Source: a virus
Virus record (IMG/VR): IMGVR_UViG_3300018424_007835
Coordinates: 32,001 to 96,000 of that record
DNA: 64,000 nucleotides
Reading direction: 5' to 3' (one strand)
Part shown: positions 1,055-16,725 of the stretch, piece by piece
Numbering within the stretch: position 1 is the first letter of the stretch
How the letters are laid out: each line of letters starts with the position of its first letter
Notes under the pieces: generated by a model
Told to the model about the DNA's origin: nothing
What the model saw: only the letters and a program-made list of their open reading frames with translations
Databases searched by the model: none
Program-made: the position numbers and the translations under genes

Positions 1055-2986
1055 ATGAGTGAAAACTTTGATGAAGATCTTCAGCGGTTTGAGGAATTGA
1101 GCGCTGCAATGGAGCCCTCTGAGGGTGATGAAAAGGGTGTGCATATGGATGAGGTCCGCAAGGGCGCTCCGTCCGTGTTTATGACTGATATTCGGTTTAA
1201 GGAGTCTTTGGAAACTGGAGACCTTCTTTCGGAAGAAGCGTTTGCTGATCTTGATGAGGATGACCAAAAGAGCTATGAGCTTGTAGAGATTCTTGATGAG
1301 AAGGGCGAAGAGCCGATGGGGTGGGCATACCGCTTTAAGGCTGATGACATCGAAGATGTTGAAGAAGCTCTTGAGGTTGAGGAAAAGACTGAGACTGATG
1401 AAGATACTGAGGTACCTGAAGAAAAGTCGGATGAACCAGAGGACTTTGAAGAGAAGACTGAAGAGGTAGAAGCTACTGAGGAAAAGGTTGATGATACATC
1501 TGACCCTGTTGCGGAACAGTTGCTCAGCAAAAGGGCTGCTGACATTTTGGCTCGCATGCGTGCCCCTATGGAGGAAGCCGTTGAGGAAGAAGAAAAGGCT
1601 CCTTCAATTTTCTTGACCGATATTCGGTTCAAGGAGATGGTAGAAGATGGTGAGCTTATTGAAGAGGAAGAATTTGCGTCTTTGGATGAAGATGCAAAGG
1701 GGGCTTTCCAGCCTGTAGATGTTTTTGAGGAAGGCACGGGTAAGGGTTACGGTATGCGGTATCGTCGCAGGAGTCCTATGGAAATTTCCGCTATGCGCAA
1801 GGGTGGAGATGACACTGGCGAAAAGGCGGCTGAGGGCGGTGACGATGCTGAGGACGTGTTTGCCTCCGCAGAGGCGGCAGAAGCACGGGCTGCTGAGCTT
1901 GGTTGCGCAGGGACGCACCGGGCTGGCGCTATGTGGATGCCTTGCGCTACTCATGATGAGTGGATGGAGTTAAGTGCTGCTGCTAAACCAGACGAACCCG
2001 AAGCTGCACCTGCTCCCGCTCCCGCTCCCGCTGCTGCCGCCCCACCGGCAGCAGGCGGAATGGCAATGCCAGCCAAGGAAGAATTCCTTTGTGGCTACCA
2101 GCGCAAGTCTGTTTCTGAATCTTGTGGTTTTTGTACAGGCGGTTGCGCATCTCAAGACGGCCTTCCAGGGCTAGCAGACATTGAAGCCCAGGTTAAGGAA
2201 GCGTACCTTAATTCTGAAATTATCGGATCTGGCTACTCATCCAACGACGACGTGTTTGTTGTTGATGTGAAGCGTGAAGATGGTTCGCTTATTGAAGTAT
2301 TTTTGACTGGCGACGGCGATGAGTTGGGGTGGCTACGTCTGAATGAGAGTTCGCTGGAAAGCAAGTCGGCTGAACCAGTTGATATTATTTCTAAAGCAAC
2401 GGCTGAAAAGCTTGCTCTGGATGCGGTTGATCAGCTAGGCTTTAAGGCTGAGGCAATGTCTATTACAGTGGATGTGTACGCTGAGCAAGATGTCTATGTA
2501 GTCGAAGCAGACTCTGAAGAGAAGAGCTTTGATGTTTTTGTTTCAGCTGACGGTAAGGTGCTTGGCTATGACGAGTACAGCTATTCTGAGCCGATGGAGT
2601 TGTCCGAAGAAGATGAGATCAAGGCGCTGGAAGCTGAGCTTGCAATTAAGCGCTTGTACTCTCGGGAGCAGCGTGAAGAAATGGCGGCCTCTGGAGAAGC
2701 TTTAGAAGATGGATCATTCCCAATTGCGGATGAAGCGGATTTAGCCAACGCAGTTCAGGCGTTTGGGCGGGCGGCTGATCCTGATTCCGCAAAAGAGCAC
2801 ATTATGAAGCGGGCCAAGGAACTGAAGCGGGAAGATATGATTCCTGAGGACTGGAAAACATCCACGGAAGAAGTCATGGAGGCTGCGCCCGCTGATGGGG
2901 CAGATGGTGAAGAAAAGGCAGCAGAAGATTTAGAGTTGCTGCGTTCACTTTTGGAGTTTGAAGAACTTGAGGGTGGCATTTCTTAA
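1055..2986 (+). CDS. Acidic modular head protein (scaffold/internal protein-like) with an internal duplicated domain, DUF3721-like module, Cys cluster, two PepSY-like folds and a C-terminal DGSFPI domain
   Basis: AGGAG SD; very Glu/Asp-rich; repeat APS(V/I)F(M/L)TDIRFKE twice; ELGCAGTHRAGAMWMPC; DVFVVDVKREDGSLIEVFL and DVYVVEADSEEKSFDVFVSADGKVL; ALEDGSFPIADEADLANAVQAFGRA. Confidence 0.6.
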   Translation: MSENFDEDLQRFEELSAAMEPSEGDEKGVHMDEVRKGAPSVFMTDIRFKESLETGDLLSEEAFADLDEDDQKSYELVEILDEKGEEPMGWAYRFKADDIEDVEEALEVEEKTETDEDTEVPEEKSDEPEDFEEKTEEVEATEEKVDDTSDPVAEQLLSKRAADILARMRAPMEEAVEEEEKAPSIFLTDIRFKEMVEDGELIEEEEFASLDEDAKGAFQPVDVFEEGTGKGYGMRYRRRSPMEISAMRKGGDDTGEKAAEGGDDAEDVFASAEAAEARAAELGCAGTHRAGAMWMPCATHDEWMELSAAAKPDEPEAAPAPAPAPAAAAPPAAGGMAMPAKEEFLCGYQRKSVSESCGFCTGGCASQDGLPGLADIEAQVKEAYLNSEIIGSGYSSNDDVFVVDVKREDGSLIEVFLTGDGDELGWLRLNESSLESKSAEPVDIISKATAEKLALDAVDQLGFKAEAMSITVDVYAEQDVYVVEADSEEKSFDVFVSADGKVLGYDEYSYSEPMELSEEDEIKALEAELAIKRLYSREQREEMAASGEALEDGSFPIADEADLANAVQAFGRAADPDSAKEHIMKRAKELKREDMIPEDWKTSTEEVMEAAPADGADGEEKAAEDLELLRSLLEFEELEGGIS

Positions 2987-2998
2987 CGAGGAGGCGTT

Positions 2999-3172
2999 GT
3001 GCGTCCTGTGGAAATTTCAGAAAGGATTGCTGAAGCTAATCAAACTCTAGCAGCACTTAATTCTAGTGCTGTAATTGGCTACCATCGGGAGCGTGAACCA
3101 GTAGAATATGTGTACGAGGGAGATAAAGTTTCGTATTTATCTCTTGATGTTAGCGAGGGCCTTGATGACTGA
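2999..3172 (+). CDS. Small hypothetical protein (57 aa, MRPVEISERIAEANQ...), not in the ORF track
   Basis: GAGGAGG SD, GTG start; fills the gap after the preceding gene; its stop overlaps the ATG at 3165 (ATGACTGA). Confidence 0.65.
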   Translation: MRPVEISERIAEANQTLAALNSSAVIGYHREREPVEYVYEGDKVSYLSLDVSEGLDD

Positions 3173-6100
3173 TATGCATGTTAAAGCTCCAGAAGTGGGT
3201 CCTAACGCTGACGCTCTCACGAGCCTCACCCGAGGACGAGGGCCTCGCCGTGGCAACCTTGAGGCGTTGTTCCGCTATTGGAGACCCATCCTCAAAAAGC
3301 CAGGTGGCTTCCGTCGTTGCGTCGTTATTTTGATGGATAACCCAAAGTTTGGTGGTAAGCCTCAGCGTATTTGTGCGTGGTTGCATCATGAGCTTACTGG
3401 CAAGTGGCCTAATGAGGGTAACCATCATGGCCGTGGCGGCCGCTCCGGTGGGGGCCGTCGCCGCCGCCGTGGTCGCCGTAAAAAGTCGTTTTCTGTCGAC
3501 ACTCTGGTGGGAAACTCCCTAAGGGAGACCGTTCGGGAGTCTAGGTCTTTGGGTGGGGTTATGTCTCAGCCTATTGATGGTCGCCAAAATGTTGTTGAGA
3601 TGAAAGCTGCCATGTTTTTGCAGCGTTATGAAAGTCATGTTTTTCCAGAAGTAGTTACAGATGTTAAGCGGGTGGGTATATTTGGTGGTTCTTCCAGACT
3701 TGCTCAGGGGGCTCAAGCTGTAGGTACCGCTATTGCCCCTGGGGATATTTCTGATGTTCGGAGTCCTGTTCGTAGCCAAATTTATGAAATGCTTACCCCC
3801 GGTTTCGGATTTAATATTCCGGGCCGCACCCCTCGCCGCCGTGGGGGTAGGGGTGCTCGTAATAAGTTTAGGTGCCCTCCTGGGTACGAGAACGGCGGAA
3901 CTTTTACTAATTCTGAGTTTAGTACTTGTGGTGCCCAAATATTAGGCATACCAAAGTTTGGGCCGGGTGCGCCGACTCTTGCTGCTGCTAGAGAGTTGGC
4001 TTCGCTTGCTAGCACTGCGGGCCTTGTTCAGGAAATTGGTGATCTTCGAAATAACTCTAATCCGCTAGATATTATTCGTGCTGCTCAGATTCCGCAGGCC
4101 CCCAAGAAGGGGTCCCCAACTCGTGCCCAGACTTCTATTGATTTTGTTCTTCAGCAATATTCTGAGTTAGATTTTCCGATTAAGGCAGTTCGTCGGGACG
4201 GTGTGATTCTAGAACCGGTTGTACCCGTTCAGCGTTTAGCGCAGATGAATGAGTTTGATGACTTAGCGGACGGTAATCTTATTGATAAGTATTCTTCAGG
4301 TGTTATTGGTGCAGAACTAGTGCCCGCTTTTAGTTCGGGGTTGAGGGCTGTGTATGTATTCATCCCTGGTGTTGGCGCTGTTAAAATTAATCGGGTAGGT
4401 GGAGAGCTGTCCCCTGAAGAGCGAGCGGGTCTACTACGAAGGTTCTCTGAAGGGATAAGCCGTGCCCCGGACATGCCTGATCCATCTGAAGATTTGAGGG
4501 CGTGGGCAGACGCTTCAAATGGCAGGTTTACAGTTGAGTTTGGCGAGGTGACCTCTAATGGGTTTAATGTTTCTGAGCCAAAGAATGAGCTTTTGCGTGT
4601 TGTGGCGGCTGGTGGGATTAAGAAGACCGTTCCACGGTGGGTGTATGAAACCTTTATGTCTCGTTCAGCCCCACGTCGTGCAAAGAATGCACCTATTTTT
4701 GAGATTGAGTCTGAAGAGAAGTCGTTAAAAGTTTTTGCGTTTGATCTTCCAACTCAGCCATTTGAGGCGGAGTTGCTAATGAGGGGCGCTCAGGCCTACA
4801 ACAAAAATATATCTACTAAGGTGGCTACGTTTAGGTCCCTTTCGTTTAAGGCTCCTTCTGCTCGTAGGATTGGCCGCACGATTGGTGAAACTGCGGGTTC
4901 GGTTGGCGGCGGCGTTTCTGCTGTTTTTGACTCTGGAGCTAATAGGTTTAGGTGCCCGCCTGGTACTCGTCATGGTGGTCGGTTTTCTGATCAGTTTGGC
5001 CGAAATTGTGGGGGTGTGGCGGGTCCTCAGGCGTTGAATCGCTTGCAACAGCTTACAAACTTTTTTCAGGAGGCGCAGTCCACTATAAATCGGTTGAACC
5101 TTTCGGGGGGTAATGGAGATCTTGATCGGGTTACGGATATACCGGAGTTGCGAGAAGCGCTAGAGGATGCTAAAGCGCAAATAGCAGAGTTTGATACTGG
5201 CGATGCTGGGATGCTTGGTCCTGGGCTTCTACAGCCAACGGAGCGTACTCCGTTGATTGGGTTGCGTTACGTTGAAATTCTTGAAAGAATGAAAGCGGAT
5301 GAGCGCCGTCGAGAGATTTTTGAAAATGTTGATTGGAACAACCTTGAAGAAGTTAGAGAATTGTTTAGTACGCTTGCAACTGTGGAGGCTGGCAGGTTAG
5401 AGGTTAATCCTCCTCAGACTCCTGGGGAGCGTAGGCGTGCGGCACTTGTTGACAATAATATTGATTTGTTTGGGGCAACTTTACAGGAGGCGGTTGGAAA
5501 AAACTTGGGAACTATTGATGCTCCTGCCCGTCCTCGCCGTGCTAGACGGGTAGAGGACCCTGATGCCGTAGATCCTTCTCCAGAGGTGCTTGAGCGGTTG
5601 CGGCAAGGTAGCGAGCTTCTACCAGGATTACGGGATCAGCTACGTCGTTATGACCAGTTCGACAATCTTCGCCCCGGCGATGAGCATCCTGACCGACCTG
5701 GGTTTTTCCTTACTGAAAATGGCGGCTTTGAAGATCGGTTTGGTAGGCCGATGCCTCTTTTGGGGGGCGGCCGTAGCGGTTCTGGGCGAACAAATGATCG
5801 GAACGCTGTAGATATTACTCCAGAGGTGCTTGAGCGGTTGCGGGAGTACGCCGATCCTGATAGTGAGCTTATGCAGCGATTCAGCGAGCAACGAAGCCGT
5901 CAAGAGATCATTGACAATCTTCGCCCCGGCGATGAGCATCCTGATTTCCCCGGCTATTATCTAGACGACAATGGTGGGTTGAGGGACCGAACTGGGAGGC
6001 CGCTACCATTGAGGGCAGGACAAGCCGACTTACCTCCACGCCGCCCCCGTGTTAATCCTAACTCTGAAGCCGGATTTGTGGAAGCTGCCCGGGCCGAGGT

Positions 6101-9100
6101 TCCTGATGGGCCAGACGCAGCGTTTGAACGTGACAAGGCTGAGTGGAAGGCACGTAAGCGGTATTGGATGCGCACTCTTGCAGAGATCGACGACTATGAT
6201 GATCGACGCTGGGTTCAGCGGTTGACAGACGAAAACTTACAGCGATACGCTGACCATTTGTCGGCGGAAGATCAGCGGGGAGACGAAATAAATAGTTTTC
6301 AGGAGAAAATGCGGGAGTTTGTTCGGGCTGAAATGGAATTTCGTGGTCTCCGACGGCCTGACGCTATTGAGCCAGGGGATCTTCCAGATGAAGCTGATGA
6401 GCAGTTTGATGTTGCCGAGTTTCAGGCAGACCTTGTTCAACGCCTTGAAGAAGGTGGGCTTGACCTGGGCAGTTTTTCGCAAGCAGAGTTGGACGACATT
6501 CTTAAAAAGCTGGACAGGGTTTTAGAGGATAATTCTGAGCCTGATGATGGAGTTGTCTGGGCGGGTATTAGAGATGCGCTCAGAGATGAGCAACGACGCC
6601 GTGATGCTCTGCGTATTGGTTCAGGCGTTGGTATTAATGAGCGATTTGATTTGAATGATCCCGATGGGGTTATTGACGCTTTAGAAGAGCTTGATGAGCG
6701 TTTGGATGTGGCGGAGGATCTCACGACCAGAAACCTTCTTGAAAGAATGTCAAACGAAGACTTAGGTTTCTACTTGCGTGCTGTTGACCGAGCAATAGAA
6801 GAGTTTGATGATATTGACTTGGCTCGTCTTAGAGATGATTTATCTCGTGAAGTCAATCGGCGCAATGGTGAAAAACCTGACACCCCTGATGTTGTGAATA
6901 AGCATTTCGATGAACTAGTCAACCGTTGGGAAGCCCTCGACGCCGGGGATATGGGGGCTCTACTATTTGCCCAGCTTTCCGATGACGACGTTGTAAAGTT
7001 CAGAAACGCCTTAGCACGATATGACGGTAATGATCCTCGGGCTGAAATGTTCCGCAGAGAGCTTGATAAAGTGTTTGAGGAGCGTTTTGGTGAAGGCGGA
7101 TCGAAACAGCATTCACATCTCCCAGGTCAAGAATTAGATGAAAAGTTTGATTTGTTTGTCTCTAAAGATATTGAAGCAGCCTTGCGGGAAATGAACGAAC
7201 GGATGTTTGCGTTCGATGATTCTGACCGTCTAGGAGTAACGCAAGAGTTCTGGGCTAGCCTATCAGATAGAGACTTAATGTTTTACGAACAGCTTATATT
7301 ACGTGCTGGTAGCGTGTTTGGTGAGGATAATTCTGAGCTGCGTTTGGTTTTGCGAGACTTCTTCACCGATATCAGGGAGGAAGTAGTTCGCAGAGGACCA
7401 AACATGGGTCGTCGCCCTGCGCCTCGTACTGACGCCCCAAGCGAAGCAGCTATTCGTAATGTGCGCAATAGGTTCCCACGTCGTGGTTTACCAGGGCGGG
7501 CTTACTGGCGGGATGAGGATTATGATAGGGGGGATGGACCTGAGCTTGATCGTCGTTTTGGTAGGTATTATGATGATGGCAGTGGGGTTCTTAATGAGCG
7601 TGGCCGTTTGGTCAATAGGGTAATTAAGGAGGATCGTGCAGAGGGTGATCTGAGGCCGGTGGATGATGACGCCCAGTTTAATCGGTTTGCTGATCCTGAG
7701 TTAGCTATACCAGCCGCCGTGGGGAACATCTTGTGGAAGCTTTCTCAGCAACTGAATGATAATCCTGAAGTGTTTGCTGCGGCGGTGTTGAACGCTTTTC
7801 AAGAGGCTGCAAATATGTTCAGAGGTGGGGTCACCGCTCGTGAGAAACTTAATCTAGACGCTTTGCGTTCCTATGTTGATAGTATTGGTGATCCGCAAGC
7901 TAAGCGGCTTGCCACTATGCGGTTAAGAAATTTCAGGGCCTTGAATGCTGCTTTGGATGCCCTTGATAGGGGTGATAACGATAGGGCACTTCGTGCTTTG
8001 GCTATGCTTAATCCTGTAGCTAGGAATAACTTGCAGCAATTGGTGGATGGTGCTCCTTCTCCTGAGGCTTTGCGATCTCCACGTCGTGTGTCGCCTGATT
8101 CGTTGGATAGGTTTACTCCTGATTTTATTGTGGACGCCGACGCTTACGATCTGAGTTTAGCTTTTGAAGAGGTCCGTGAGGCGGCTCGTAATGCACCCCC
8201 TGGCCCCCAGCGTGTTCAGGCGTTGCAGCTTTTGCGAGAGATGCGTCAAGAGTTGGCCCGCCGTCATCGTGCTGCCCGGATTATGCAGACGGATGAGGAG
8301 TATCTGGATAGGGTTATGGACCGTGCTCTTAATACGCAAATTAACAGCTTCGGTGACGCAGGGGCGTTACCTGCGGAAATGAACCGGTTGACTATTTTGG
8401 AATTGCGTGATGCCCTAGCTACCGAGCGTGGTAGGGTTGCTGACGGCACGGGTTCGATAGAGCGTGTTCAGCGCCTTGAGGCTGCGATTGCTGCTGTTAC
8501 GGACGTTTATAATGCCCAAATTGGCCGTGATGGCCGCCGCTATGAGCAGAAACTTGAAGATGCTTGGTCTGCTATTTGGGGGTCGCCTGAGGATGGTATG
8601 GTTGTGCCTCATGCTGTAGACGACGCCTCTGGGGTTGCGGAGATACTTCGCAACGACTTTGGCATTTCGTTGGAGGATTGGCCTGAGCTTCGGCGTGATT
8701 TAGCTCGCCGGATTGATGGGTTGTCGGTTGATGATTATGCCCGTTTGACGGGTGATGATAACTTGGGGCCAGAGTATTTATTGTTTAATATTGATCGTGT
8801 CTTTGAAGATGCTCGTAGGTCCGAAATTTTCGAGATGAATTTACCGCTAGCGGATCGGAGCCGTGAGGCACTGGAGGAGCGGTTGGCGTATCTTGATAAT
8901 TTCGAAATTGATGAAATTGCTAGATTGGCAAGACGCACAGAGGCACCGTCTCCTAATAGGCTCCAGCTAGATGAGCGGTTGCAGAATAATCGCAATAGAG
9001 AAATTGGTGAGCTTGAACTTGAGCTTCGCCGTCGTGGGGCTGAGCAGATGGGCAGCAATATTGAGTTTCCCGTCAACGCTGAAAATATTGGGTACGGCTG

Positions 9101-11942
9101 GATGAGCCCGGACGACTGGAACAACCTAAATGCTATGCCGACTAGAGATTTGCTTAATATGCAGCGGCGCATTTTGGCAGACAAAGAAGATACTCGGGCA
9201 TATGCCGATAAGCTTGGGGAAATTAGTGAGATTCTCGATAGACGTAACCGGTTTGGGCCGACTGAGTTGCAGCAGCCAATCCATAATCGTAGTGATGCGG
9301 CGTTGGAGAATTTGCGGAACGTTTTGTCTAGTGAATTTATTAACCGGCGTGGGATGAACCCTGGTGCAGTTTTGAGCATGCAACGTCTTCGTGATGAGGT
9401 TGATGCAGAAATTGGGCGACGTGAAGCCCGCAATCAGGTTGGCCGGGCTGTAGGTAATAATGCTGATTTAGATGGCAGGCTTGGTCAGATTGCCAGGTAC
9501 GATTGGAAAGAGGCAGCGGAGACTCGCCGGGCTAAGCGGAGGCAAAAGATTAAGGCTTTGGCCCAGCGCAGGTATGGGGATGATACGCCTTGGGACATTA
9601 CGGCCAGCGAACTGTCTTTGTTGGGTGATCGGGAAGCTGAGTCTAGAGTTCGTGCGATGTATTCTGATGGCGTTGAAATGAATGTGGGCGAGATTGAGAT
9701 TGATGGTGTAGTTTATCAGAAGATTATCCAGCCTGAAATTAATGATGTTTATATCCAGCGTGAGTCTGACACTGGCCGTATTTCGTACATTAATGCTGAG
9801 GGGGTTAATAACTTTATTTTGCGTGCTCCAGATGGCACAGAGTTTAGTGAACGAGGCTCCCCAAGTCACCTTGATGGCGGTATTGCGAGGACACTGAATT
9901 TCAAGTACAATGCCGACGGGAGGCTTTCAGCGAACAGCCACGCCTATCATAGTTATCTTGGTTTCAAAAAAACCATTGATGGGCCCAATGGGCAAAAGGT
10001 TGACTTCAGCGGCGGGGGCGCTTCTAACGAGTTTAATGACAACGCTGCCTTGTGGTATGGAGGATTGGGCATTCCTAAGTATAAGGTGTCTGCAGCGGCA
10101 GATGGGGTTGCGGTGTGGGCTCGGCATGGTTACCGTAATAGCGATTCCCGTCAAATTATTAGGCTTAACGAGAGAATGGAACTAATGCTTGAGCGGTACA
10201 ATGGCTACAAGCTGGCTAAGGGAGATGGCAGGGAGATCACCGCCGAGATGCTACAGGCGAAAGCTTTAATCAAGGACGATATCAGGGCCGCCCGCATTGA
10301 TACGATGCTTAGCGTGCATCGTGACCCCGATAGCCGTGCGGACCAGCTTCCAGCTCACCACGATTTTTTGGTGGCTCTGGATGGGCCTAATGGGGAGCGT
10401 AATGCGGTTGCGTTCCAGGCGTTCAAGGGTAGAGGGTTCAGAAGCTTTGCTATTGGAGGACCCGGACAGGATGGGGTGCCTGCAGAAGAGATAGCTGCTT
10501 TAGAAGCTGATGATCCTGACATTTTGGACAAAATGCAACAACTTGGCTATGACGACCACGGTGGTTTGTCGGGGGCACTGTTTGAGGCGGGTACTTACGA
10601 TGTTCAGGAGCTTTTCCCACGGGGATGGTTTGATGAGCCTGATCCAGCTTCTAGGCCAGAAACAATTAATCAGCGGCTGAAAACGGCTGAGCGGTGGAGT
10701 GTTAATCCTAATCGTGTTCCTTTAGATGCAAATAATGACCCGGCAGGTGCCTTGCCTTCTGTTGCGGTTGGTGCCAATGGGATTGATGATCAGGCAACTG
10801 CTGTTCAGCGGCTGCGTGATGGTGGCGACATTATGGAGATTCCTGACTTTTTCGTGGCACAGGCAATCTTTGATAATTCAGATCATCCCGGGTCAGGTCA
10901 TTGGGACCGGTCAGACGTTGTTAACGCTACGCCTCGTTATGAAGTTATTACGGGCATTCAGCGGGGGATTAACAATGCTGGTGCTGATCTGACCGATCTA
11001 CCTAGTGGTATGACTTTCTTCCGAGACTCTGAGACTGGTCAGCTGTATGGGTTCAAGTTTGCTAATGGGTATTCATTTGGTCATTATGGTGGCGCTGTTG
11101 AGGTTACTGCTCGTATGTTGCAGGAGCGGATGGGTATGCAGGCAGGTCAGATTCGTTGGGACGGCCCGATGGGTGAGGACAATAACCCGAATGTGCCTAA
11201 TCCGGGTACGACTCGTGGGTTGGTTATAGAGATGGCTCATAACTGGGTTCCTGAGGGGCGTGGTTTGGGCGATACTAATACTAATCTAAGGTTGCAGGAT
11301 GCGGACGGTTTTGGGCGCAATATAAGAGCGACTTCTGGCAATTCCAGCTATTTTGAGGGGGGAATAGTAACTGAGCCTGACGGTACTGAGGTGGCTGTGG
11401 GGCCAGTAAATTTGGAAGATATGTTCCAGATGACTTTGTTGGATATGCTGTTGGGGAACCCAGACCGGCACGAGGGAAACTTTGGGATTTATGTTGATCC
11501 TGAAACAAATGAGCAGCGTTTGGTGCCTTGGGATAATGAGGCAGGTCTGATAGGTGGTGCCAGATTCGGCCGAGGGGGCCAGGTAGAGATGGGAAGGGTT
11601 TTGCGGCAGCAGGCTATGGCAGATGGGGACCCTGCAGAGCAGATGAAGCTGCTTCAAGCTGGGGGTTATGTGAGTTCTATTCATACGGCGTTGGAGGAGC
11701 GTATTCAGAGTGATCGAGAGGGGGCTCGGGAGGCTCTTAGTGCTGTGATGGAGCGCATGGCGTTTGGTGAAGAAATCGCACGTTTGGGTGATGATATTCA
11801 AGATATGGTTTCGGATGTGGGTGACGATTTGAGTCGTGACAACCAGTGGGAATTGGCGTCTCAGTTGCTCCAGCAGCGGTATGATTGGTTGTTGGAGCAG
11901 TTTGAGTCTAATAATCTAGACTATATTTTGGATCTAATATAG
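3165..11942 (+). CDS. Giant (about 2925 aa) polyvalent head-associated protein with a GNAT-like region and a C-terminal HipA/PI3-4K-like kinase domain
   Basis: Start moved to the ATG at 3165 (GAGGG SD, coupled to the upstream small ORF). Motifs: GGFRRCV...ICAWLHHELTGKWP; two FRCPPG..GG.F....CG repeats; GGGASNEFN..KVSAAADGVAVWARHGY; LLDMLLGNPDRHEGNF..LVPWDNE. Confidence 0.7.
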   Translation: MTDMHVKAPEVGPNADALTSLTRGRGPRRGNLEALFRYWRPILKKPGGFRRCVVILMDNPKFGGKPQRICAWLHHELTGKWPNEGNHHGRGGRSGGGRRRRRGRRKKSFSVDTLVGNSLRETVRESRSLGGVMSQPIDGRQNVVEMKAAMFLQRYESHVFPEVVTDVKRVGIFGGSSRLAQGAQAVGTAIAPGDISDVRSPVRSQIYEMLTPGFGFNIPGRTPRRRGGRGARNKFRCPPGYENGGTFTNSEFSTCGAQILGIPKFGPGAPTLAAARELASLASTAGLVQEIGDLRNNSNPLDIIRAAQIPQAPKKGSPTRAQTSIDFVLQQYSELDFPIKAVRRDGVILEPVVPVQRLAQMNEFDDLADGNLIDKYSSGVIGAELVPAFSSGLRAVYVFIPGVGAVKINRVGGELSPEERAGLLRRFSEGISRAPDMPDPSEDLRAWADASNGRFTVEFGEVTSNGFNVSEPKNELLRVVAAGGIKKTVPRWVYETFMSRSAPRRAKNAPIFEIESEEKSLKVFAFDLPTQPFEAELLMRGAQAYNKNISTKVATFRSLSFKAPSARRIGRTIGETAGSVGGGVSAVFDSGANRFRCPPGTRHGGRFSDQFGRNCGGVAGPQALNRLQQLTNFFQEAQSTINRLNLSGGNGDLDRVTDIPELREALEDAKAQIAEFDTGDAGMLGPGLLQPTERTPLIGLRYVEILERMKADERRREIFENVDWNNLEEVRELFSTLATVEAGRLEVNPPQTPGERRRAALVDNNIDLFGATLQEAVGKNLGTIDAPARPRRARRVEDPDAVDPSPEVLERLRQGSELLPGLRDQLRRYDQFDNLRPGDEHPDRPGFFLTENGGFEDRFGRPMPLLGGGRSGSGRTNDRNAVDITPEVLERLREYADPDSELMQRFSEQRSRQEIIDNLRPGDEHPDFPGYYLDDNGGLRDRTGRPLPLRAGQADLPPRRPRVNPNSEAGFVEAARAEVPDGPDAAFERDKAEWKARKRYWMRTLAEIDDYDDRRWVQRLTDENLQRYADHLSAEDQRGDEINSFQEKMREFVRAEMEFRGLRRPDAIEPGDLPDEADEQFDVAEFQADLVQRLEEGGLDLGSFSQAELDDILKKLDRVLEDNSEPDDGVVWAGIRDALRDEQRRRDALRIGSGVGINERFDLNDPDGVIDALEELDERLDVAEDLTTRNLLERMSNEDLGFYLRAVDRAIEEFDDIDLARLRDDLSREVNRRNGEKPDTPDVVNKHFDELVNRWEALDAGDMGALLFAQLSDDDVVKFRNALARYDGNDPRAEMFRRELDKVFEERFGEGGSKQHSHLPGQELDEKFDLFVSKDIEAALREMNERMFAFDDSDRLGVTQEFWASLSDRDLMFYEQLILRAGSVFGEDNSELRLVLRDFFTDIREEVVRRGPNMGRRPAPRTDAPSEAAIRNVRNRFPRRGLPGRAYWRDEDYDRGDGPELDRRFGRYYDDGSGVLNERGRLVNRVIKEDRAEGDLRPVDDDAQFNRFADPELAIPAAVGNILWKLSQQLNDNPEVFAAAVLNAFQEAANMFRGGVTAREKLNLDALRSYVDSIGDPQAKRLATMRLRNFRALNAALDALDRGDNDRALRALAMLNPVARNNLQQLVDGAPSPEALRSPRRVSPDSLDRFTPDFIVDADAYDLSLAFEEVREAARNAPPGPQRVQALQLLREMRQELARRHRAARIMQTDEEYLDRVMDRALNTQINSFGDAGALPAEMNRLTILELRDALATERGRVADGTGSIERVQRLEAAIAAVTDVYNAQIGRDGRRYEQKLEDAWSAIWGSPEDGMVVPHAVDDASGVAEILRNDFGISLEDWPELRRDLARRIDGLSVDDYARLTGDDNLGPEYLLFNIDRVFEDARRSEIFEMNLPLADRSREALEERLAYLDNFEIDEIARLARRTEAPSPNRLQLDERLQNNRNREIGELELELRRRGAEQMGSNIEFPVNAENIGYGWMSPDDWNNLNAMPTRDLLNMQRRILADKEDTRAYADKLGEISEILDRRNRFGPTELQQPIHNRSDAALENLRNVLSSEFINRRGMNPGAVLSMQRLRDEVDAEIGRREARNQVGRAVGNNADLDGRLGQIARYDWKEAAETRRAKRRQKIKALAQRRYGDDTPWDITASELSLLGDREAESRVRAMYSDGVEMNVGEIEIDGVVYQKIIQPEINDVYIQRESDTGRISYINAEGVNNFILRAPDGTEFSERGSPSHLDGGIARTLNFKYNADGRLSANSHAYHSYLGFKKTIDGPNGQKVDFSGGGASNEFNDNAALWYGGLGIPKYKVSAAADGVAVWARHGYRNSDSRQIIRLNERMELMLERYNGYKLAKGDGREITAEMLQAKALIKDDIRAARIDTMLSVHRDPDSRADQLPAHHDFLVALDGPNGERNAVAFQAFKGRGFRSFAIGGPGQDGVPAEEIAALEADDPDILDKMQQLGYDDHGGLSGALFEAGTYDVQELFPRGWFDEPDPASRPETINQRLKTAERWSVNPNRVPLDANNDPAGALPSVAVGANGIDDQATAVQRLRDGGDIMEIPDFFVAQAIFDNSDHPGSGHWDRSDVVNATPRYEVITGIQRGINNAGADLTDLPSGMTFFRDSETGQLYGFKFANGYSFGHYGGAVEVTARMLQERMGMQAGQIRWDGPMGEDNNPNVPNPGTTRGLVIEMAHNWVPEGRGLGDTNTNLRLQDADGFGRNIRATSGNSSYFEGGIVTEPDGTEVAVGPVNLEDMFQMTLLDMLLGNPDRHEGNFGIYVDPETNEQRLVPWDNEAGLIGGARFGRGGQVEMGRVLRQQAMADGDPAEQMKLLQAGGYVSSIHTALEERIQSDREGAREALSAVMERMAFGEEIARLGDDIQDMVSDVGDDLSRDNQWELASQLLQQRYDWLLEQFESNNLDYILDLI
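5578..5944 (+). repeat. Internal tandem duplication (about 240-250 nt unit) in the giant gene
   Basis: Identical 26-mer at 5578-5603 and 5818-5843; identical 32-mer at 5661-5692 and 5913-5944; encodes PEVLERLR...DNLRPGDEHPD twice. Confidence 0.95.
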
Positions 11943-11957
11943 GGGAAGGGTGCAGTC

Positions 11958-12206
11958 ATGAGGCGTTACGTGTTTTTTGATAAGTTTGATAAGACTCAGA
12001 GGGGGATTCTAACCTTAGAGGATAACGGAGATTTTTCTGCTGAGCCAGCGGATATGTTGCCGTATTTTGCTGGTATGGTGCGCTGGCTGGGCCCTGATGA
12101 TAAGCCAACTTCTATATTTGATTTTGTTAAAAGTGGGTTGTATAATATGGATGTGGTTCGTCTTGCTGATGACGGAGAAATGTATTACATTGGGGAGGGC
12201 GACTGA
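11958..12206 (+). CDS. Small hypothetical protein (candidate immunity/partner of the kinase domain)
   Basis: 82-aa ORF with purine-rich SD immediately after the giant gene; function is inference. Confidence 0.6.
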   Translation: MRRYVFFDKFDKTQRGILTLEDNGDFSAEPADMLPYFAGMVRWLGPDDKPTSIFDFVKSGLYNMDVVRLADDGEMYYIGEGD

Positions 12207-12817
12207 TGTACAAGTATTATGCGCTTGCTGATGGAAACATGATAGTCGCTCGGGTTAGCGATTCGGGGGACTCCGCAGTTTTTTTCGCTAAGCGGGGTTG
12301 GCAGGACGATGTGGATGCCTTTGAGGAAACCGTAGAAGTACGGAAAGCCCGTCAAGAATCGGCTCCGTATGACGAGGCTGTTCTTAAGAATGCCTTTTCT
12401 GATTTGGTTGAGATTAGTTCAGCCCTATTTGATAGTGCCGTAGGACAAATCAACACTTTCAATCAAGAGTACGATAACAATCAAGCACAGCTTGAGGGTA
12501 TGACTGATCATGATATGGGGTTTTTTATTACTGAGTTTCCTGCACGCCGCCCACGTTTAGCTTCCTATGAGGATATTAACAAGCTGTGGACTGCTATGTT
12601 TGTGGTTTCTACGGGAGGGGGCGATGATGAAGGTGTTCGCACACCTGAGCAAACTCGTGCCGATCTAAAGGCGTTGTATTCTTTGTTGAAGAACGCTGAG
12701 AACACAAACGACGGTTCCACTATTCGTAATTTGGTTCGTTCTTTGGGTGATTTTGATACAGGTATTGTACCGGACCGTGGTTTGGTTGAGCCTGTTCAAA
12801 GGAGGGGTAATGGCTAA
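12206..12817 (+). CDS. Hypothetical protein
   Basis: 203 aa; TGATG overlap with the upstream gene, overlaps the downstream start. Confidence 0.65.
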   Translation: MYKYYALADGNMIVARVSDSGDSAVFFAKRGWQDDVDAFEETVEVRKARQESAPYDEAVLKNAFSDLVEISSALFDSAVGQINTFNQEYDNNQAQLEGMTDHDMGFFITEFPARRPRLASYEDINKLWTAMFVVSTGGGDDEGVRTPEQTRADLKALYSLLKNAENTNDGSTIRNLVRSLGDFDTGIVPDRGLVEPVQRRGNG

Positions 12818-14315
12818 GGACCCATTGGAAGATCAGACAGTTCCGACTAAAGAGATGGCAGAAGAGTTATCTCGTATTTTGGGTTGTTCGGGGGCGCATA
12901 AAATTGGCGATGATGCGTGGGGCCCGTGTGAGTCTTCATCAGATTTAAAGAGGCTTATTCGTATGGGCAATCCTGCGTTTCGTGAATGGAAGAAACGTCA
13001 GGGTAAAGGTGGGTTTGAGGACTTGTTGCGCTTGAAGGCCGTTGGTGCCCGCAAAGGAATGTTTGATACGCAGGCTGAAGCTGAAATGGCGGCTGTGCGA
13101 TTGGGTTGCTTTGGGGCACATCAGGCGGGGCAGGGGCGGTGGGCTCCTTGTGGTACTCCAGAAGAGCATAATGCTGTTCATGCTTCAGAGCCAAATGGTA
13201 GAAGGGTTTTACGGGCAGCTAAGCCTGCCCGTCGTGTTATTACTAATCCTAAGGTGTGGGAAAACTTACGGGAGCGTGGGCCGCTTCGCATAGAGACGCT
13301 ACCTGGGGGTGGTTTAGTTTCTGGTAAGGCTGCCGCATCGGATTCGTTTAAGCCCACGGCTGGTATGGTTGAGGAAGCAAAGCGGGCTTTGGATTGGCGT
13401 AAAGAGTTTGGCCGTGGGGGTACTATGGTTGGTATTGCACGGGCAAGGGACATAGCTAATGGCCGCAATTTGCCGTATGCTACGGTGAAGCGTATGAAGG
13501 CGTTTTTTGATAGGCATCAGAGTGATTCTAAAGCGGAGGGGTATCGGCCGGGGGAGAAGGGTTTTCCTTCTAATGGTCGGATTGCTTGGGCGCTGTGGGG
13601 CGGTGATGCTGGGTATACGTGGGCTAAGGCTATTGTTCGCCGGGTGGAGGGTAAAGAGAAGTCTATTTTTGATTCGATTGAAGAGAAGCGTTTCTATACT
13701 CGTAAGCGTAGGGATGAGTACGCTAAGCGTGGATGGGCGCTTCCTGATGGGTCGTTTCCGATTAGGGATGTGGGGGATTTGCGAAACGCAATTCAGGCTT
13801 ACGGGTTAGGTAAGAATCGGGCTGCAGCTAAGCGTCATATTATGAAGCGGGCGAGGGCGTTGGGGCGGACCGATTTGATTCCTGATAATTGGAAGCAGAG
13901 AGAGAAAGCTGCCCGTCGAGGCGGTGATCCTAAAACTCCAGCTAAGCCGTCTGAGCGTATATCGGGGTCTAGTAGAAATAAGCCAGGGTCAGCGTCCGGG
14001 AAACGAAACAATATTGAGTTATCTGCGGCGGTGAAGAACTCCTTAAAAGATAAGGTTAAGACACACAATGAGAAAATGCGGAGTAGCGATAAGCCCGACC
14101 GGACTGTTACGCTGGGGCGTTTAACGGCTGTTTGGCGTAGGGGTGCTGGCGCTTTTTCGCAAACGCACCGCCCGAACATGTCTAGGCAACAGTGGGCGAT
14201 GGGCAGGGTGAATGCTTTTCTAAAATTGGTGTCTAGTGGAAAACCTTCAAACCCGAAGTACACGACCGATAACGATTTGTTGCCCGAGAAGCATCCACGT
14301 TATTCTAAGGGTTGA
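12810..14315 (+). CDS. Basic modular head protein: two DUF3721-like modules, a RIAWALWGGD head-morphogenesis-associated domain, an LPDGSFPI domain and a DUF5824-like domain
   Basis: AGGAGG SD before ATG 12810. Motifs LGCSGAH..WGPC, LGCFGAH..WAPC, GRGGTMVGIARARDIA..RIAWALWGGDAG, ALPDGSFPIRDVGDLRNAIQAYG, VWRRGAGAF..HRP..QQWAMGRVNAF. Confidence 0.65.
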   Translation: MAKDPLEDQTVPTKEMAEELSRILGCSGAHKIGDDAWGPCESSSDLKRLIRMGNPAFREWKKRQGKGGFEDLLRLKAVGARKGMFDTQAEAEMAAVRLGCFGAHQAGQGRWAPCGTPEEHNAVHASEPNGRRVLRAAKPARRVITNPKVWENLRERGPLRIETLPGGGLVSGKAAASDSFKPTAGMVEEAKRALDWRKEFGRGGTMVGIARARDIANGRNLPYATVKRMKAFFDRHQSDSKAEGYRPGEKGFPSNGRIAWALWGGDAGYTWAKAIVRRVEGKEKSIFDSIEEKRFYTRKRRDEYAKRGWALPDGSFPIRDVGDLRNAIQAYGLGKNRAAAKRHIMKRARALGRTDLIPDNWKQREKAARRGGDPKTPAKPSERISGSSRNKPGSASGKRNNIELSAAVKNSLKDKVKTHNEKMRSSDKPDRTVTLGRLTAVWRRGAGAFSQTHRPNMSRQQWAMGRVNAFLKLVSSGKPSNPKYTTDNDLLPEKHPRYSKG

Positions 14316-14502
14316 GCGGTTTTGCTAGTAGTGTGATATACGTTATTTTTGGTTTTTGCGGCGCTGTAAGAGATTATTGTTAAAGTTCCCGTGGTTGCCT
14401 TTACTTTGGTGCTAGCATAATAGTTGACTGGTGTCACTGCTTTTTGGGTCGCCTGTCATTAAACAGTAAACATGTTAAACTCAAACCTTAGGAGGAATGA
14501 AC

Positions 14503-15900
14503 ATGAGTTTTGATGAGAGTCGTCTCAATGAGCTGAAGGGTGCTTTGTCTGAGAAGATGGCAGAGCAGCGTCAGATTGCTGATTCGATGCAGATTGAGGG
14601 GACTACCCTTATTGCTGACGCAGAGAAGAAGGCTGCGTTCCAGAAGAATATGGTTGACATCAAGGAAATTAAGGGTCTCATTGAGGGTCTTGGTGAGCTT
14701 GAGGAAGTTCAGAAGTGGGCTTCGGAGCCGAATCAGAAGAGCGTGGCTGCTGCGGCAGATGCGGCTGCTGATCGTCGTCCGCAGGCTTCGACTGTGGGTG
14801 GTGCCTTTTTGGATTCGCCTGAGTTCAAGGATTTGCAGGGTGGCCGAAATGGTTACACCATGCGCTCGCCTTTTGAGGTGAAGAGCCTTCTTACCAAGGA
14901 TATTCATCAAGGTACTCCTGGTGGGACCGGTTTTGCAGCCCCTGATATGTTTGGTGGAGTTGAGCGTGACGGTATTGTGCAGCTTCCGCAGCGTAGCCGC
15001 CGGGTTCGGGATCTTTTCCCTGCCCGCACGACTAATGCTGCGGTTGTTGAGTACTTCCGTCAGACCGGCTATGTGCTTAGCACCTACGGTACCGGTCGTG
15101 CAGTCACTCCTGGTACGCCGGGTGGTGACGGATGGCGTGCCGGGTTTGCGTCTGCGGCTTCGGCTTACATGGTACCTGAGCGTGATGGGAGTGAGTTTGG
15201 CATGAAGCCACAGTCAAGCCTTTCCTTTGTTGGCCGTCAGGCTCCGGTGCGCACTATTGCTCACTGGGAAGCTGCTCACCGTAATGTGTTGTCGGATGAG
15301 CCTCAGCTTCGTGGGATCATTGACAATGAGCTTCTGTACGGCCTTCGCCTTATGGAGGATCAGCAGATCCTTAATGGCGACGGCAGCGGCGACCAGCTTG
15401 ACGGTATCCTCAACGACAGCGACATTCAGGCTTATACCCACCCGAACTTCTCACCGGGCTACGCTTCGGCCGCTTCAGCGAACGAGTCCACTGACACGAA
15501 GGCTGACGCAATTCGTCGTGCGCTTACTCTCGCCTACCTGGCGAACTACGAGCCCACTGGCGTGATTGTCAACCCGATTGACTGGGAAGACATTGAGCTG
15601 ACGAAGAACAGCCAGGGCACCTACCTCCTTGCGATGTCGGTTGCTGGTGGCGCTGAGTCACGGGTGTGGCGGGTTCCCGTCATCGACACCCCTGCGATTG
15701 CTCAGGGCACGGCGCTGGTTGGTGCCTTCGGTACCGGCGCTCAGCTGTACGACCGTGAGGCGGCTTCGATCCGTATTTCGGAGAACTACGATGACTTCTT
15801 CACTCGGAACGCTATTGTTGTTCTGGCTGAAGAGCGCCTTGCCCTTGCGGTGAAGCGCCCCGAGTCGTTCGTTGCAATTACCTTAGGTGAACAACCATAA
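14503..15900 (+). CDS. Major capsid protein, HK97 fold, with N-terminal coiled-coil delta domain
   Basis: AGGAGG SD 7 nt before ATG 14503; VRDLFP, VRTIAHW, EDQQILNGDG...LDGIL, FTRNAIVVLAEERLALAVKRPESFV are typical HK97-family signatures. Confidence 0.95.
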   Translation: MSFDESRLNELKGALSEKMAEQRQIADSMQIEGTTLIADAEKKAAFQKNMVDIKEIKGLIEGLGELEEVQKWASEPNQKSVAAAADAAADRRPQASTVGGAFLDSPEFKDLQGGRNGYTMRSPFEVKSLLTKDIHQGTPGGTGFAAPDMFGGVERDGIVQLPQRSRRVRDLFPARTTNAAVVEYFRQTGYVLSTYGTGRAVTPGTPGGDGWRAGFASAASAYMVPERDGSEFGMKPQSSLSFVGRQAPVRTIAHWEAAHRNVLSDEPQLRGIIDNELLYGLRLMEDQQILNGDGSGDQLDGILNDSDIQAYTHPNFSPGYASAASANESTDTKADAIRRALTLAYLANYEPTGVIVNPIDWEDIELTKNSQGTYLLAMSVAGGAESRVWRVPVIDTPAIAQGTALVGAFGTGAQLYDREAASIRISENYDDFFTRNAIVVLAEERLALAVKRPESFVAITLGEQP

Positions 15901-15925
15901 TCGTAGTTTAACGGCTTAGAGTTTT

Positions 15926-15956
15926 GCCCCCGGGTTTCGGCCCGGGGGCTTTCTCT
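15926..15956 (+). terminator. Intrinsic terminator after the capsid gene
   Basis: GCCCCCGGG-TTTCGG-CCCGGGGGC stem followed by TTTCTCT. Confidence 0.85.
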
Positions 15957-15970
15957 ATTAGTCGTGGCTT

Positions 15971-15987
15971 TGCTATAATAGGGTATG
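15971..15987 (+). promoter_or_regulatory. Extended -10 leaderless promoter
   Basis: TGC-TATAAT-AGGGT-ATG with no SD; identical CTATAATAGGGTATG at 19903-19917. Confidence 0.75.
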
Positions 15988-16725
15988 CCAATATTTAATT
16001 TTGACGATGAAGATTCTGATGTTCCGATCCCTACGTGGACGCCCGATCAGATACAGAGCTTAGAGTCAATTAATCCTTTCTATGTACCTGGCATCGTTAA
16101 CCTGTTAAAGTTTTTAGTTCACGAAAAAGGAACTTTGCTGGACAGCGTGCTTGATTTAACTTTTGTTTTACATTCTGTTGCCAACATGGATAATAGCGAC
16201 TACACACTTAGCAGGACAGACGGTCTTGTTGCTATTGCGAGTGAGTTTTGTTTGATTGACTGTCTGTATGACGGATCGGTTTTAGCAGGAATTGAGATGT
16301 TAGATAACGCTGTACTGTTTTTGGCTTTGAACGATCAAGCAAATTTTGCTTTGGAAGCGGCAGTTTGCTTAAAAGACAAAAACTCCTCAATCATGCAAAC
16401 ATCGGCTGTGCTACCGTCACTTTCGCTGTTTGGGCATTGGGAAGAATTTGCGTCAACGGTACTCGCTTGCCTATTGACAAATGCTTCCACATCTAGTAAA
16501 ATGTCTACACTGTTTAAAGTGATCAAACATCTAGACATTGGAGTGAACTCAGAAATAGAGTTTGTTGACCACATAAGAAAGCTGTGTGCGGTTAATCTGC
16601 TGTCCTTAAACATATCCGAAAGTAGTGATGCTGTAGTAAGCATTAATCACCAACCCGCAGGGCTGTTTCTTCTATTTTCGAACCAAGAAAAACTGGCTAG
16701 ACGTTTAGCGGAGTTGTCCATCTGA
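15985..16725 (+). CDS. Hypothetical protein (independently expressed, moron-like)
   Basis: 246-aa ORF between a terminator/leaderless promoter and the RNR gene; visibly more A-rich than its neighbours. Confidence 0.65.
   Translation: MPIFNFDDEDSDVPIPTWTPDQIQSLESINPFYVPGIVNLLKFLVHEKGTLLDSVLDLTFVLHSVANMDNSDYTLSRTDGLVAIASEFCLIDCLYDGSVLAGIEMLDNAVLFLALNDQANFALEAAVCLKDKNSSIMQTSAVLPSLSLFGHWEEFASTVLACLLTNASTSSKMSTLFKVIKHLDIGVNSEIEFVDHIRKLCAVNLLSLNISESSDAVVSINHQPAGLFLLFSNQEKLARRLAELSI

Follow-up and report, generated by a model that had tools for sequence, protein, structure and literature searches.

Polyvalent proteins of phages are very large, multi-domain proteins whose genes lie among those of the virion and for which packaging and injection have been proposed (Iyer, Burroughs, Anand, de Souza and Aravind 2017; PMC5512222). 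Kinase and GNAT domains are among their listed parts, the kinase being a truncated Ser/Thr/Tyr kinase without a C-lobe (PMC5512222). The MuF-domain polymorphic toxins, as summarised in the same paper, combine a head-associated N-terminal part with variable C-terminal tips and a cognate downstream gene, and T4 Alt provides a precedent for an enzymatic protein that is carried in the capsid and enters the host with the DNA (PMC5512222). In the HipBST system, the small, separately encoded protein HipS neutralises HipT, a kinase of the HipA superfamily, by inserting a Trp into its active site (Baerentsen et al. 2023; PMC10627512). Here, we analyse a locus that recalls each of these systems in part, namely a giant gene for a protein of 2925 amino acids (aa) in the head module of an uncultured phage, together with the genes for an 82-aa and a 203-aa protein that follow it. 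The locus lies in a window of 64,000 nucleotides (nt), bases 32001-96000 of one 109.7-kb virus contig (IMG/VR record IMGVR_UViG_3300018424_007835; CheckV completeness estimate 74%).

The evidence tips slightly towards a reading in which the product of the giant gene is a modular carrier of cargo that is associated with the head, cargo and small genes form a swappable cassette, and the 82-aa protein is the partner or lock of a kinase at the C-terminal end of the carrier.

Results

An earlier note on this DNA, made from the sequence, had recognised a HipA-like kinase with a catalytic set near the C-terminus of the giant protein, and the kinase itself is well borne out by the predicted structure. 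Residues 2040-2944 were folded with a 34-row alignment (mean predicted local distance difference test score, pLDDT, 82.4); residue numbers of motifs are counted here from an ATG at 3108, and subtracting 19 gives the numbering of the 2925-aa protein. Foldseek retrieved CtkA (E 7e-4, probability 1.0), class I PI3Ks, PI4KIIalpha, VPS34 and HipA with this model. VIA-align 2 matched model residues ~490-905 to PI4KIIalpha (4pla, Z 14.8 over 259 aa, root-mean-square deviation 4.3), CotH (5jda, Z 14.1) and CtkA (3akj, Z 12.4), with the HipA-type chains HipA 4pu3 (Z 11.4), HipT 7ab3 (Z 10.5) and HipA 5k98 (Z 10.2) ranking below these three, and nearly all of the 29 chains at a Z of at least 8 were kinases. 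The helical tail of the protein is assigned to the C-lobe because the VIA alignments include it. The predicted fold places the domain in the PI3/4K–HipA superfamily.

The catalytic set of the modelled domain is complete, comprising the beta3 Lys2650, the alphaC Glu2665, Asp2786-Arg-His2788, Asn2791 and the metal-binding Asp2809, each of which predominates in the family alignment (24-32 of 34 relatives), and the kinase is probably active. All motifs listed in the earlier note were found in the sequence where it had put them: GINN at aa 2620, YGFK at 2647, AVEV at 2663, NPDRHEGN at 2784 and WDNE at 2808, as well as the GGGAS...VWARHGY segment (aa 2300-2342, nt ~10010-10133) and the Arg run (aa 115-126). 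Homologous stretches of two relatives match PF00454 (P0017, 29.1 bits; P0065, 33.7 bits; gathering cut-off 27.1), and the PADLOC profile PDC-M03A matches the window kinase with E 3.7e-10, this short match at the kinase loop being the only PADLOC match of the giant protein. The best PDB sequence matches of the window kinase, HipA and CtkA, cover the catalytic loop only, at E ~1, and HipA-specific profiles gave no match on the window protein at E<=0.1 (Pfam) or 0.01 (NCBIfam). Membership of the HipA family was considered and rejected because of the missing HipA Pfam match, the PF00454 matches of the relatives and the better structural matches to PI4KIIalpha, CotH and CtkA; the 'HipA-like' label is appropriate at superfamily level only.

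By tblastn and phmmer, the 82-aa gene looked like an orphan. In many relatives, the slot after the giant gene is occupied by an ORF (open reading frame) of 67-127 aa with a matching pattern, and jackhmmer started from the ORF of locus L009, not from the window, recovers the window's 82-aa protein at E 7.5e-23. Distribution was judged within 80 loci fetched via the conserved front end of the giant gene, out of 424 IMG/VR stretches that encode this front end. Within this set, the 82-aa family is present in 20 loci from ~8 lineages, always 3' of a kinase-bearing ORF (hidden Markov model search, E<=10). The complete loci without a kinase, i.e., NUDIX loci, the sigma-type L027/L030, the cargo-less L040, the pentapeptide/Fic-type L076/L078 and L063, contain no member of the family even at E<=10.

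Co-folding of the kinase domain (aa 2519-2944) with the 82-aa protein, both given as our own alignments, yielded interaction prediction scores from aligned errors (ipSAE) of 0.88, 0.87 and 0.84, compared with 0.00 for the best of three controls. The mark used here is reached by 58 of 80 solved complexes and by 2 of 110 mismatched pairs, a calibration that is only rough, own alignments having been used. The runs share at least 83% of contacts, with a partner pLDDT of at least 87. On the kinase, the predicted interface comprises the Gly-rich loop region 2614-2624, Lys2650 and its neighbour, Pro2785-Asn2791 and Trp2808-Leu2812, the last three corresponding in model numbering to 611-612 (Lys strand), 746-752 (catalytic loop) and 769-773 (Asp region). 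On the 82-aa protein, it comprises the invariant Pro35 and a conserved SG-aromatic motif (residues 58-65). These predictions support binding of the 82-aa protein in the catalytic cleft of the kinase. A PDB profile search with the 82-aa family found no similarity to any solved chain, its one match, to BurrH repeats, being rejected as a spurious summed match. Neither the 82-aa nor the 203-aa protein had a usable neighbour in the ESM Atlas, where all template modelling (TM) scores were <0.5 by query.

One clade of related loci carries a pseudokinase. In L029-L039, a separate ORF of ~900 aa encodes the kinase, from which the catalytic Asp, His and Asn and the metal-binding Asp have been lost (members L029, L031-L035 and L037-L039; the ORF is at ~14760-17470 in L029). 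The clade keeps the 82-aa and 203-aa partners and has an extra acidic ORF of ~75 aa.

Cargo and small genes change together while their surroundings stay the same. The 643-aa protein, the 57-aa ORF, the 501-aa protein and the capsid gene (Table 1) are kept on both flanks in ~80 loci. Precomputed and new Pfam scans identified PI3_PI4_kinase, NUDIX, sigma-70 region 4 with helix-turn-helix (HTH), and pentapeptide repeats with Fic as cargo of the relatives, and L040 has no cargo behind the front end. In a FastTree phylogeny of the front end, which was midpoint-rooted and represents one domain and few independent lineages, the NUDIX-cargo locus L011 groups with the kinase-cargo loci L023/L024 and the cargo-less L040 groups with the kinase-cargo L021, both with Shimodaira–Hasegawa-like support of 1.0. 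The small downstream genes of these tree neighbours differ along with the cargo, and NUDIX-cargo loci have three unrelated small genes in place of those for the 82- and 203-aa proteins. Because the tree groups loci of unlike cargo, we conclude that the conserved flanks stayed in place while cargo and accessory genes were jointly exchanged or lost; the co-swapping of C-terminal domain and downstream genes, for which the earlier note had asked relatives to be compared, is thus apparent from tree and loci alike. In a relative of 3532 aa (L027:7565-18160, + strand), the same front end precedes two matches to sigma-70 region 4, further matches to HTH and a weak one to a poly(A)-polymerase head domain, which suggests a transcription-directed cargo.

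The front end itself is shared by 44 relatives of giant size (1769-4807 aa), all of which have residues ~20-785 in common at 34-57% identity, with the C-terminal 700-900 residues common to only some of them. It also exists alone, as a gene of 545-570 aa, in L040 and L042-44, and in L040 this gene is directly followed by the 501-aa gene. All six Cys residues of the 2925-aa protein are located in the front end, where they form three C-x17-C pairs (52/70, 237/255 and 597/615, counted from the ATG at 3165), each exactly 18 residues apart; the last two pairs are part of repeated RCPPG...GG.F...CG motifs. No Pfam or NCBIfam family matches the front end. A profile search with it returned 322 proteins, and more than 80 protein clusters match the first 80-120 residues only, at 45-71% identity. 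The matched stretch is the Cys/His module, often with the basic tract, and in these clusters the module sits after an N-terminal Peptidase_S78 domain (PF04586, HK97-family prohead proteases); it was covered by no Pfam family in the proteins scanned. Since its first ~90 aa also sit inside prohead-protease proteins, we infer that the front end belongs to the prohead interior, an association that is read from sequence and is the strongest evidence here beyond gene order. The head-type Cys/His motifs noted earlier at the N-terminus are thus real and belong to a module common to prohead-protease proteins, and the proposed xxK-A/S protease sites are present as sequence.

The region between front end and kinase contains a second candidate cargo domain. 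The GNAT-like motif falls in the most widely shared cargo block (aa 2260-2470). In acetyltransferases of the GNAT type, the pyrophosphate loop for acetyl-CoA (Q/R-x-x-G-x-G/A) lies between beta4 and alpha3. Here, the glycines 2302-2304 directly precede helix 266-281 of the model, and a strand and the invariant DG..VW..GF segment come next; the third Gly (2304) is nearly invariant in the family and the leading Q/R of the loop is not conserved. In the large model, KKT23, Elp3, NatD and PA3270 (Z 6.4-6.6), all of them GNATs, were the only proteins other than kinases that matched this part. Folded alone (pLDDT 83.8), the domain had no Foldseek match at E<=0.001 (best E 0.011), with Hat1, NatD, KKT23 and the GmvT toxin among the weak rows; by VIA, the best Z was 6.0-6.1 and ~35 of the top 50 rows were GNATs, including the TacT and AtaT toxins, with BPI/Aha1-type sheets tying with GNATs at the top of the list. 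Acetyltransferase Pfam families gave no match at E<=1 in 23 family members, and a PDB profile search with the family returned no acetyltransferase. A very divergent GNAT-like fold is plausible for this zone of the model; of the motif reported earlier, the position and a weak fold similarity (Z ~6) stand, and a sequence-level match to acetyltransferases does not.

The 203-aa gene tracks the GNAT-like domain and not the kinase. Its family comprises 22 loci in the fetched set and 22 database clusters, none of them annotated. In the fetched loci, its members always directly adjoin the 501-aa gene and are confined to loci with the GNAT-like block. The gene is not tied to the kinase, because it is found in L027/L030, which have the GNAT-like block and neither kinase nor 82-aa gene, and is missing from L050, which has the kinase and the 82-aa gene and no GNAT-like block.

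The longest open frame of the region is 3108..11942 (2944 aa). The giant gene likely starts at the ATG at 3165, because GAGGG is located 6-7 nt upstream, the N-termini of relatives align there and the database copy P0002 has 2925 aa. The 2944-aa protein matched no Pfam family at E<=0.1 and no NCBIfam family at E<=0.01, a PHROGs scan gave just two families, both of unknown function, self-BLAST detected no internal repeat (E<=1e-3), and megablast of the giant gene against GenBank phages found no match. The acidic middle region had no match in Pfam or NCBIfam.

Table 1 Features of the giant gene and its surroundings (window positions)
Feature	Position	Strand	Basis and remarks
643-aa acidic DUF3721 protein, conserved upstream neighbour	1055..2986	+	Pfam scan, synteny
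57-aa ORF, GTG start, GAGGAGG upstream	2999..3172	+	sequence read, jackhmmer; absent from the list of the earlier note
Giant gene	3165..11942	+	2925 aa, ~327 kDa
Conserved front end ('chassis'), ~766-780 aa	3165..5462	+	32-57% identity in 80 fetched loci
N-terminal Cys/His module, GRGPRRGNLE...RC...CAWLHHE.TGKWPNEG	3189..3428	+	invariant alignment columns; phrog_6439 E 1.9e-5
Gly/Arg-rich basic tract, conserved K-S at its end	3429..3485	+	sequence read, family alignment
Acidic variable middle region	5463..9224	+	18-24% Asp+Glu, no Cys; conserved in closest relatives only
GNAT-like domain (predicted), long curved beta-sheet, GGG loop aa 2302-2304, DG..VW.R.GF strand-helix	9585..10637	+	predicted fold
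PI3/4K–HipA-superfamily kinase domain (predicted, ~425 residues), helical C-lobe to protein end	10662..11939	+	predicted fold
Catalytic loop NPDRHEGN (Asp2786, His2788, Asn2791)	11457..11480	+	alignment column counts; partners Lys2650, Glu2665, Asp2809
82-aa protein, small-protein family 3' of kinase-bearing genes	11958..12206	+	jackhmmer, locus distribution, co-fold
203-aa protein	12206..12817	+	no structural neighbour; upstream of 501-aa head gene
501-aa DUF3721/DUF5824 protein, conserved downstream neighbour	12810..14315	+	Pfam, PHROGs, synteny
Major capsid protein, HK97 type	14497..15900	+	PF05065 E 2e-41; phrog_10

The head module is ordered portal, MuF, S78 protease, 643-aa, 57-aa, giant, 82-aa, 203-aa, 501-aa and major capsid gene, which confirms the earlier placement of a ~2925-aa ORF inside a head-assembly operon. 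The giant gene lies between the S78 prohead protease and the capsid gene. Upstream of the window, the contig encodes an intein-bearing large terminase, the portal protein (PF04860), a 247-aa MuF protein (PF04233) and the 516-aa S78 prohead protease, which has a DUF3721 motif at its end. The 57-aa ORF, which overlaps the ATG of the giant gene by 8 nt with its stop, was found by jackhmmer directly upstream of the giant gene in ~50 related loci with every cargo type and had no family match. A gap of 15 nt separates the stop of the giant gene from the start of the 82-aa gene, the junction of the 82- and 203-aa genes reads TGATG, the 203- and 501-aa genes overlap by 8 nt, and a GGAGG-like site precedes each of the three starts; the coupling that had been suggested for the small genes is evident from these overlaps and sites.

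The 643-aa and 501-aa neighbours share DUF3721 motifs and a DGSFPI...DL.NAI.A.G...HI.KRA..L motif, and the DUF3721 element that they have in common with the prohead protease may be a prohead-targeting or protease-docking element. A whiB gene, which scores above the Pfam cut-off, points to an actinobacterium as the probable host of this phage. Other features of the genome include a second very large ORF in the window (1975 aa; 23820-29747, + strand), a class II ribonucleotide reductase gene (16842-19709, + strand) whose weak match to LAGLIDADG (E 0.012) falls short of the Pfam cut-off, and, in the large terminase gene (G000:C1:25309-28782, - strand), clear LAGLIDADG homing-endonuclease matches together with weaker intein-splicing and Hint matches.

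The same DNA was also met in metagenomes from salt marsh and freshwater. In RNA libraries, contigs of at least 99% identity span the entire stretch 2900-16000 in one salt-marsh run, and three further runs cover it in part, with several-fold greater depth over the capsid gene. This coverage would fit expression in nature, although transcript ends and levels are not readable from such contigs and DNA carry-over is possible. In four RNA libraries, the contigs all start 47-60 nt upstream of the capsid ATG (14437-14450), where depth rises several-fold, a weak hint of a capsid-gene transcript start. Among the 185,579 species genomes of GTDB, the front end was matched 7 times only, in each case on a contig of a metagenome-assembled genome; these contigs are of mixed phyla and therefore give no information on the host.

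Discussion

Our preferred reading of a modular carrier could operate as follows. The front end would be a component of the head-assembly module in an uncultured aquatic phage lineage and would direct the giant protein into the prohead. A long acidic linker would then lead to the exchangeable cargo, here a divergent GNAT-like domain and a kinase with intact catalytic residues, and cargo and small genes before the next head gene would behave as one swappable cassette. The giant protein would be packaged in the head and subsequently ejected into the host, where the kinase would meet its substrate. The 82-aa protein would be the cognate partner that occupies the kinase cleft and, by analogy with HipS and HipT, prevents the kinase from acting in the cell that produces the phage, and the 203-aa protein would go with the GNAT-like domain.

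Several observations weigh against this reading or parts of it. The proposed packaging is read from gene position and from the module shared with protease proteins, and a tblastn search of GenBank phages (50,697 records) with the 766-aa front end gave no match to a cultured phage. The window's own kinase has no Pfam match at E<=0.1, and the GNAT-like domain, with a best Z of ~6, stays below the tool's caution line of 8 and has no Pfam or PDB sequence match. Five kinase-bearing lineages (L021, L046, L065, L069 and L073) are without the 82-aa family, and since the independent lineages are few, its co-occurrence with the kinase could partly be shared descent. The solved HipS-HipT complex may have helped the predictor, in which case the co-fold result would be partly memory. 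Finally, the 82-aa family persists in the clade whose kinase lost its Asp, His, Asn and Asp, which disfavours a role purely in neutralising the enzyme. The proposal of the earlier note that the small genes neutralise the cargo therefore keeps the predicted position of the 82-aa protein in the kinase cleft on its side, and has against it the dead kinase of this clade and, for the 203-aa protein, the missing tie to the kinase.

The same pseudokinase clade is an argument for regarding the small genes as assembly chaperones, adaptors, cargo substrates or clade-specific head genes that were inherited with the cargo, instead of inhibitors. A substrate would also sit in the cleft, and the 82-aa protein has a conserved SG[FY]SY motif; the 203-aa gene is invariably adjacent to the 501-aa head gene, whose start it overlaps; and neither small protein resembles a known antitoxin. 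We nevertheless consider such roles unlikely. The cargo-less L040 has neither small gene, which argues against core head genes, and the predicted interface buries the catalytic loop with more than 110 confident contacts, whereas a transient substrate usually makes fewer. The layout of conserved N-terminal delivery part, variable tip and small gene directly downstream is also that of polymorphic toxins, and the GNAT toxins TacT, AtaT and GmvT are among the weak fold matches. The cargo could accordingly be pictured as a weapon against competitors that is released at lysis or superinfection, with the small genes as classical immunity proteins. However, the locus has no secretion or lysis-linked signal and is located in the head module, and the sigma-70 region 4/HTH cargo is regulatory and not toxic, which makes such a weapon very improbable.

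A further alternative concerns delivery itself. The giant protein might be an internal scaffold or core of the head that is never delivered, its enzymes acting late, for instance on host or phage proteins as heads are assembled, in the producing cell or in the prohead before it is degraded by the protease or kept in the capsid. Its neighbours are scaffold-like acidic DUF3721 proteins beside the S78 protease, and its N-terminal module recurs in protease proteins whose site of action is the prohead interior. In L040, the front end has no cargo at all, and the conserved dipeptides K-S and K-A after the basic tract resemble cleavage sites of the HK97 type. Yet sigma-70 region 4/HTH, Fic, NUDIX and kinase domains are typical host-directed effectors with no obvious use in capsid building, and the rapid swapping of cassettes fits conflict better than assembly. 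We regard an undelivered scaffold as improbable on balance, and continue to favour, by a narrow preference, the carrier that takes its cargo into the host.

It is tempting to extend the carrier reading to the whole lineage, although we advance this extension only tentatively and think it rather doubtful in its entirety. A widespread uncultured aquatic phage lineage would use one conserved head-core carrier for exchangeable cargo aimed at the host, namely kinase, acetyltransferase-like, NUDIX, sigma-70 region 4/HTH and Fic domains, each with its own 'lock'. The 82-aa protein would then represent a new class of proteins that plug the active site of PI3/4K–HipA-type kinases, functionally parallel to HipS and unrelated to it in sequence, and the 203-aa protein would be the lock of the GNAT-like domain. 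Phage proteins that enter the cell with the DNA decide the first minutes of infection, and few of them are known outside model phages. The more than 400 IMG/VR stretches form a large natural set in which one front end is joined to varied enzymes and regulators and to matching small partner genes. In addition, the 82-aa family is a candidate for a new family of inhibitors of atypical kinases, and the front end offers a first functional lead for the conserved Cys/His module of many prohead-protease proteins.

Comparison with known systems

The N4 virion RNA polymerase is a very large protein that travels in the capsid and enters the host with the DNA. Like T4 Alt, it has no homology to the giant protein, a putative cargo carrier.

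With the polyvalent proteins, the giant protein has in common that several effector domains (here GNAT-like and kinase, as predicted) occur in one phage polypeptide among virion genes. It differs in that LPD-type or other signature Pfam domains were not found in a scan of the 2944-aa protein, in having its own carrier domain of ~780 aa (no Pfam family) and paired small proteins, and in its kinase, which is PI3/4K–HipA-like with a full helical C-lobe. The layout also resembles that of the MuF-fused polymorphic toxins; here, however, the giant polypeptide contains no MuF domain, the PF04233 match being a separate 247-aa gene two genes upstream, and the carrier domain is unrelated to MuF.

PI4KIIalpha, CotH and CtkA (4pla, 5jda and 3akj) are the best structural matches of the kinase and share the DRHxxN loop with it. 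Sequence identity to them is 9-14%, and a lipid or protein substrate is not inferable from this similarity.

In comparison with HipBST, the locus has no HipB-like repressor, no PDB chain similar in sequence to the 82-aa protein was found, and the kinase forms the end of a head-module protein of 327 kDa, whereas HipT is a free toxin. The modelled kinase matches HipT itself (7ab3, Z 10.5), and the 82-aa protein is predicted to contact the catalytic and Gly-rich loops of its kinase, in parallel to a small protein that reaches into the active site of its partner.

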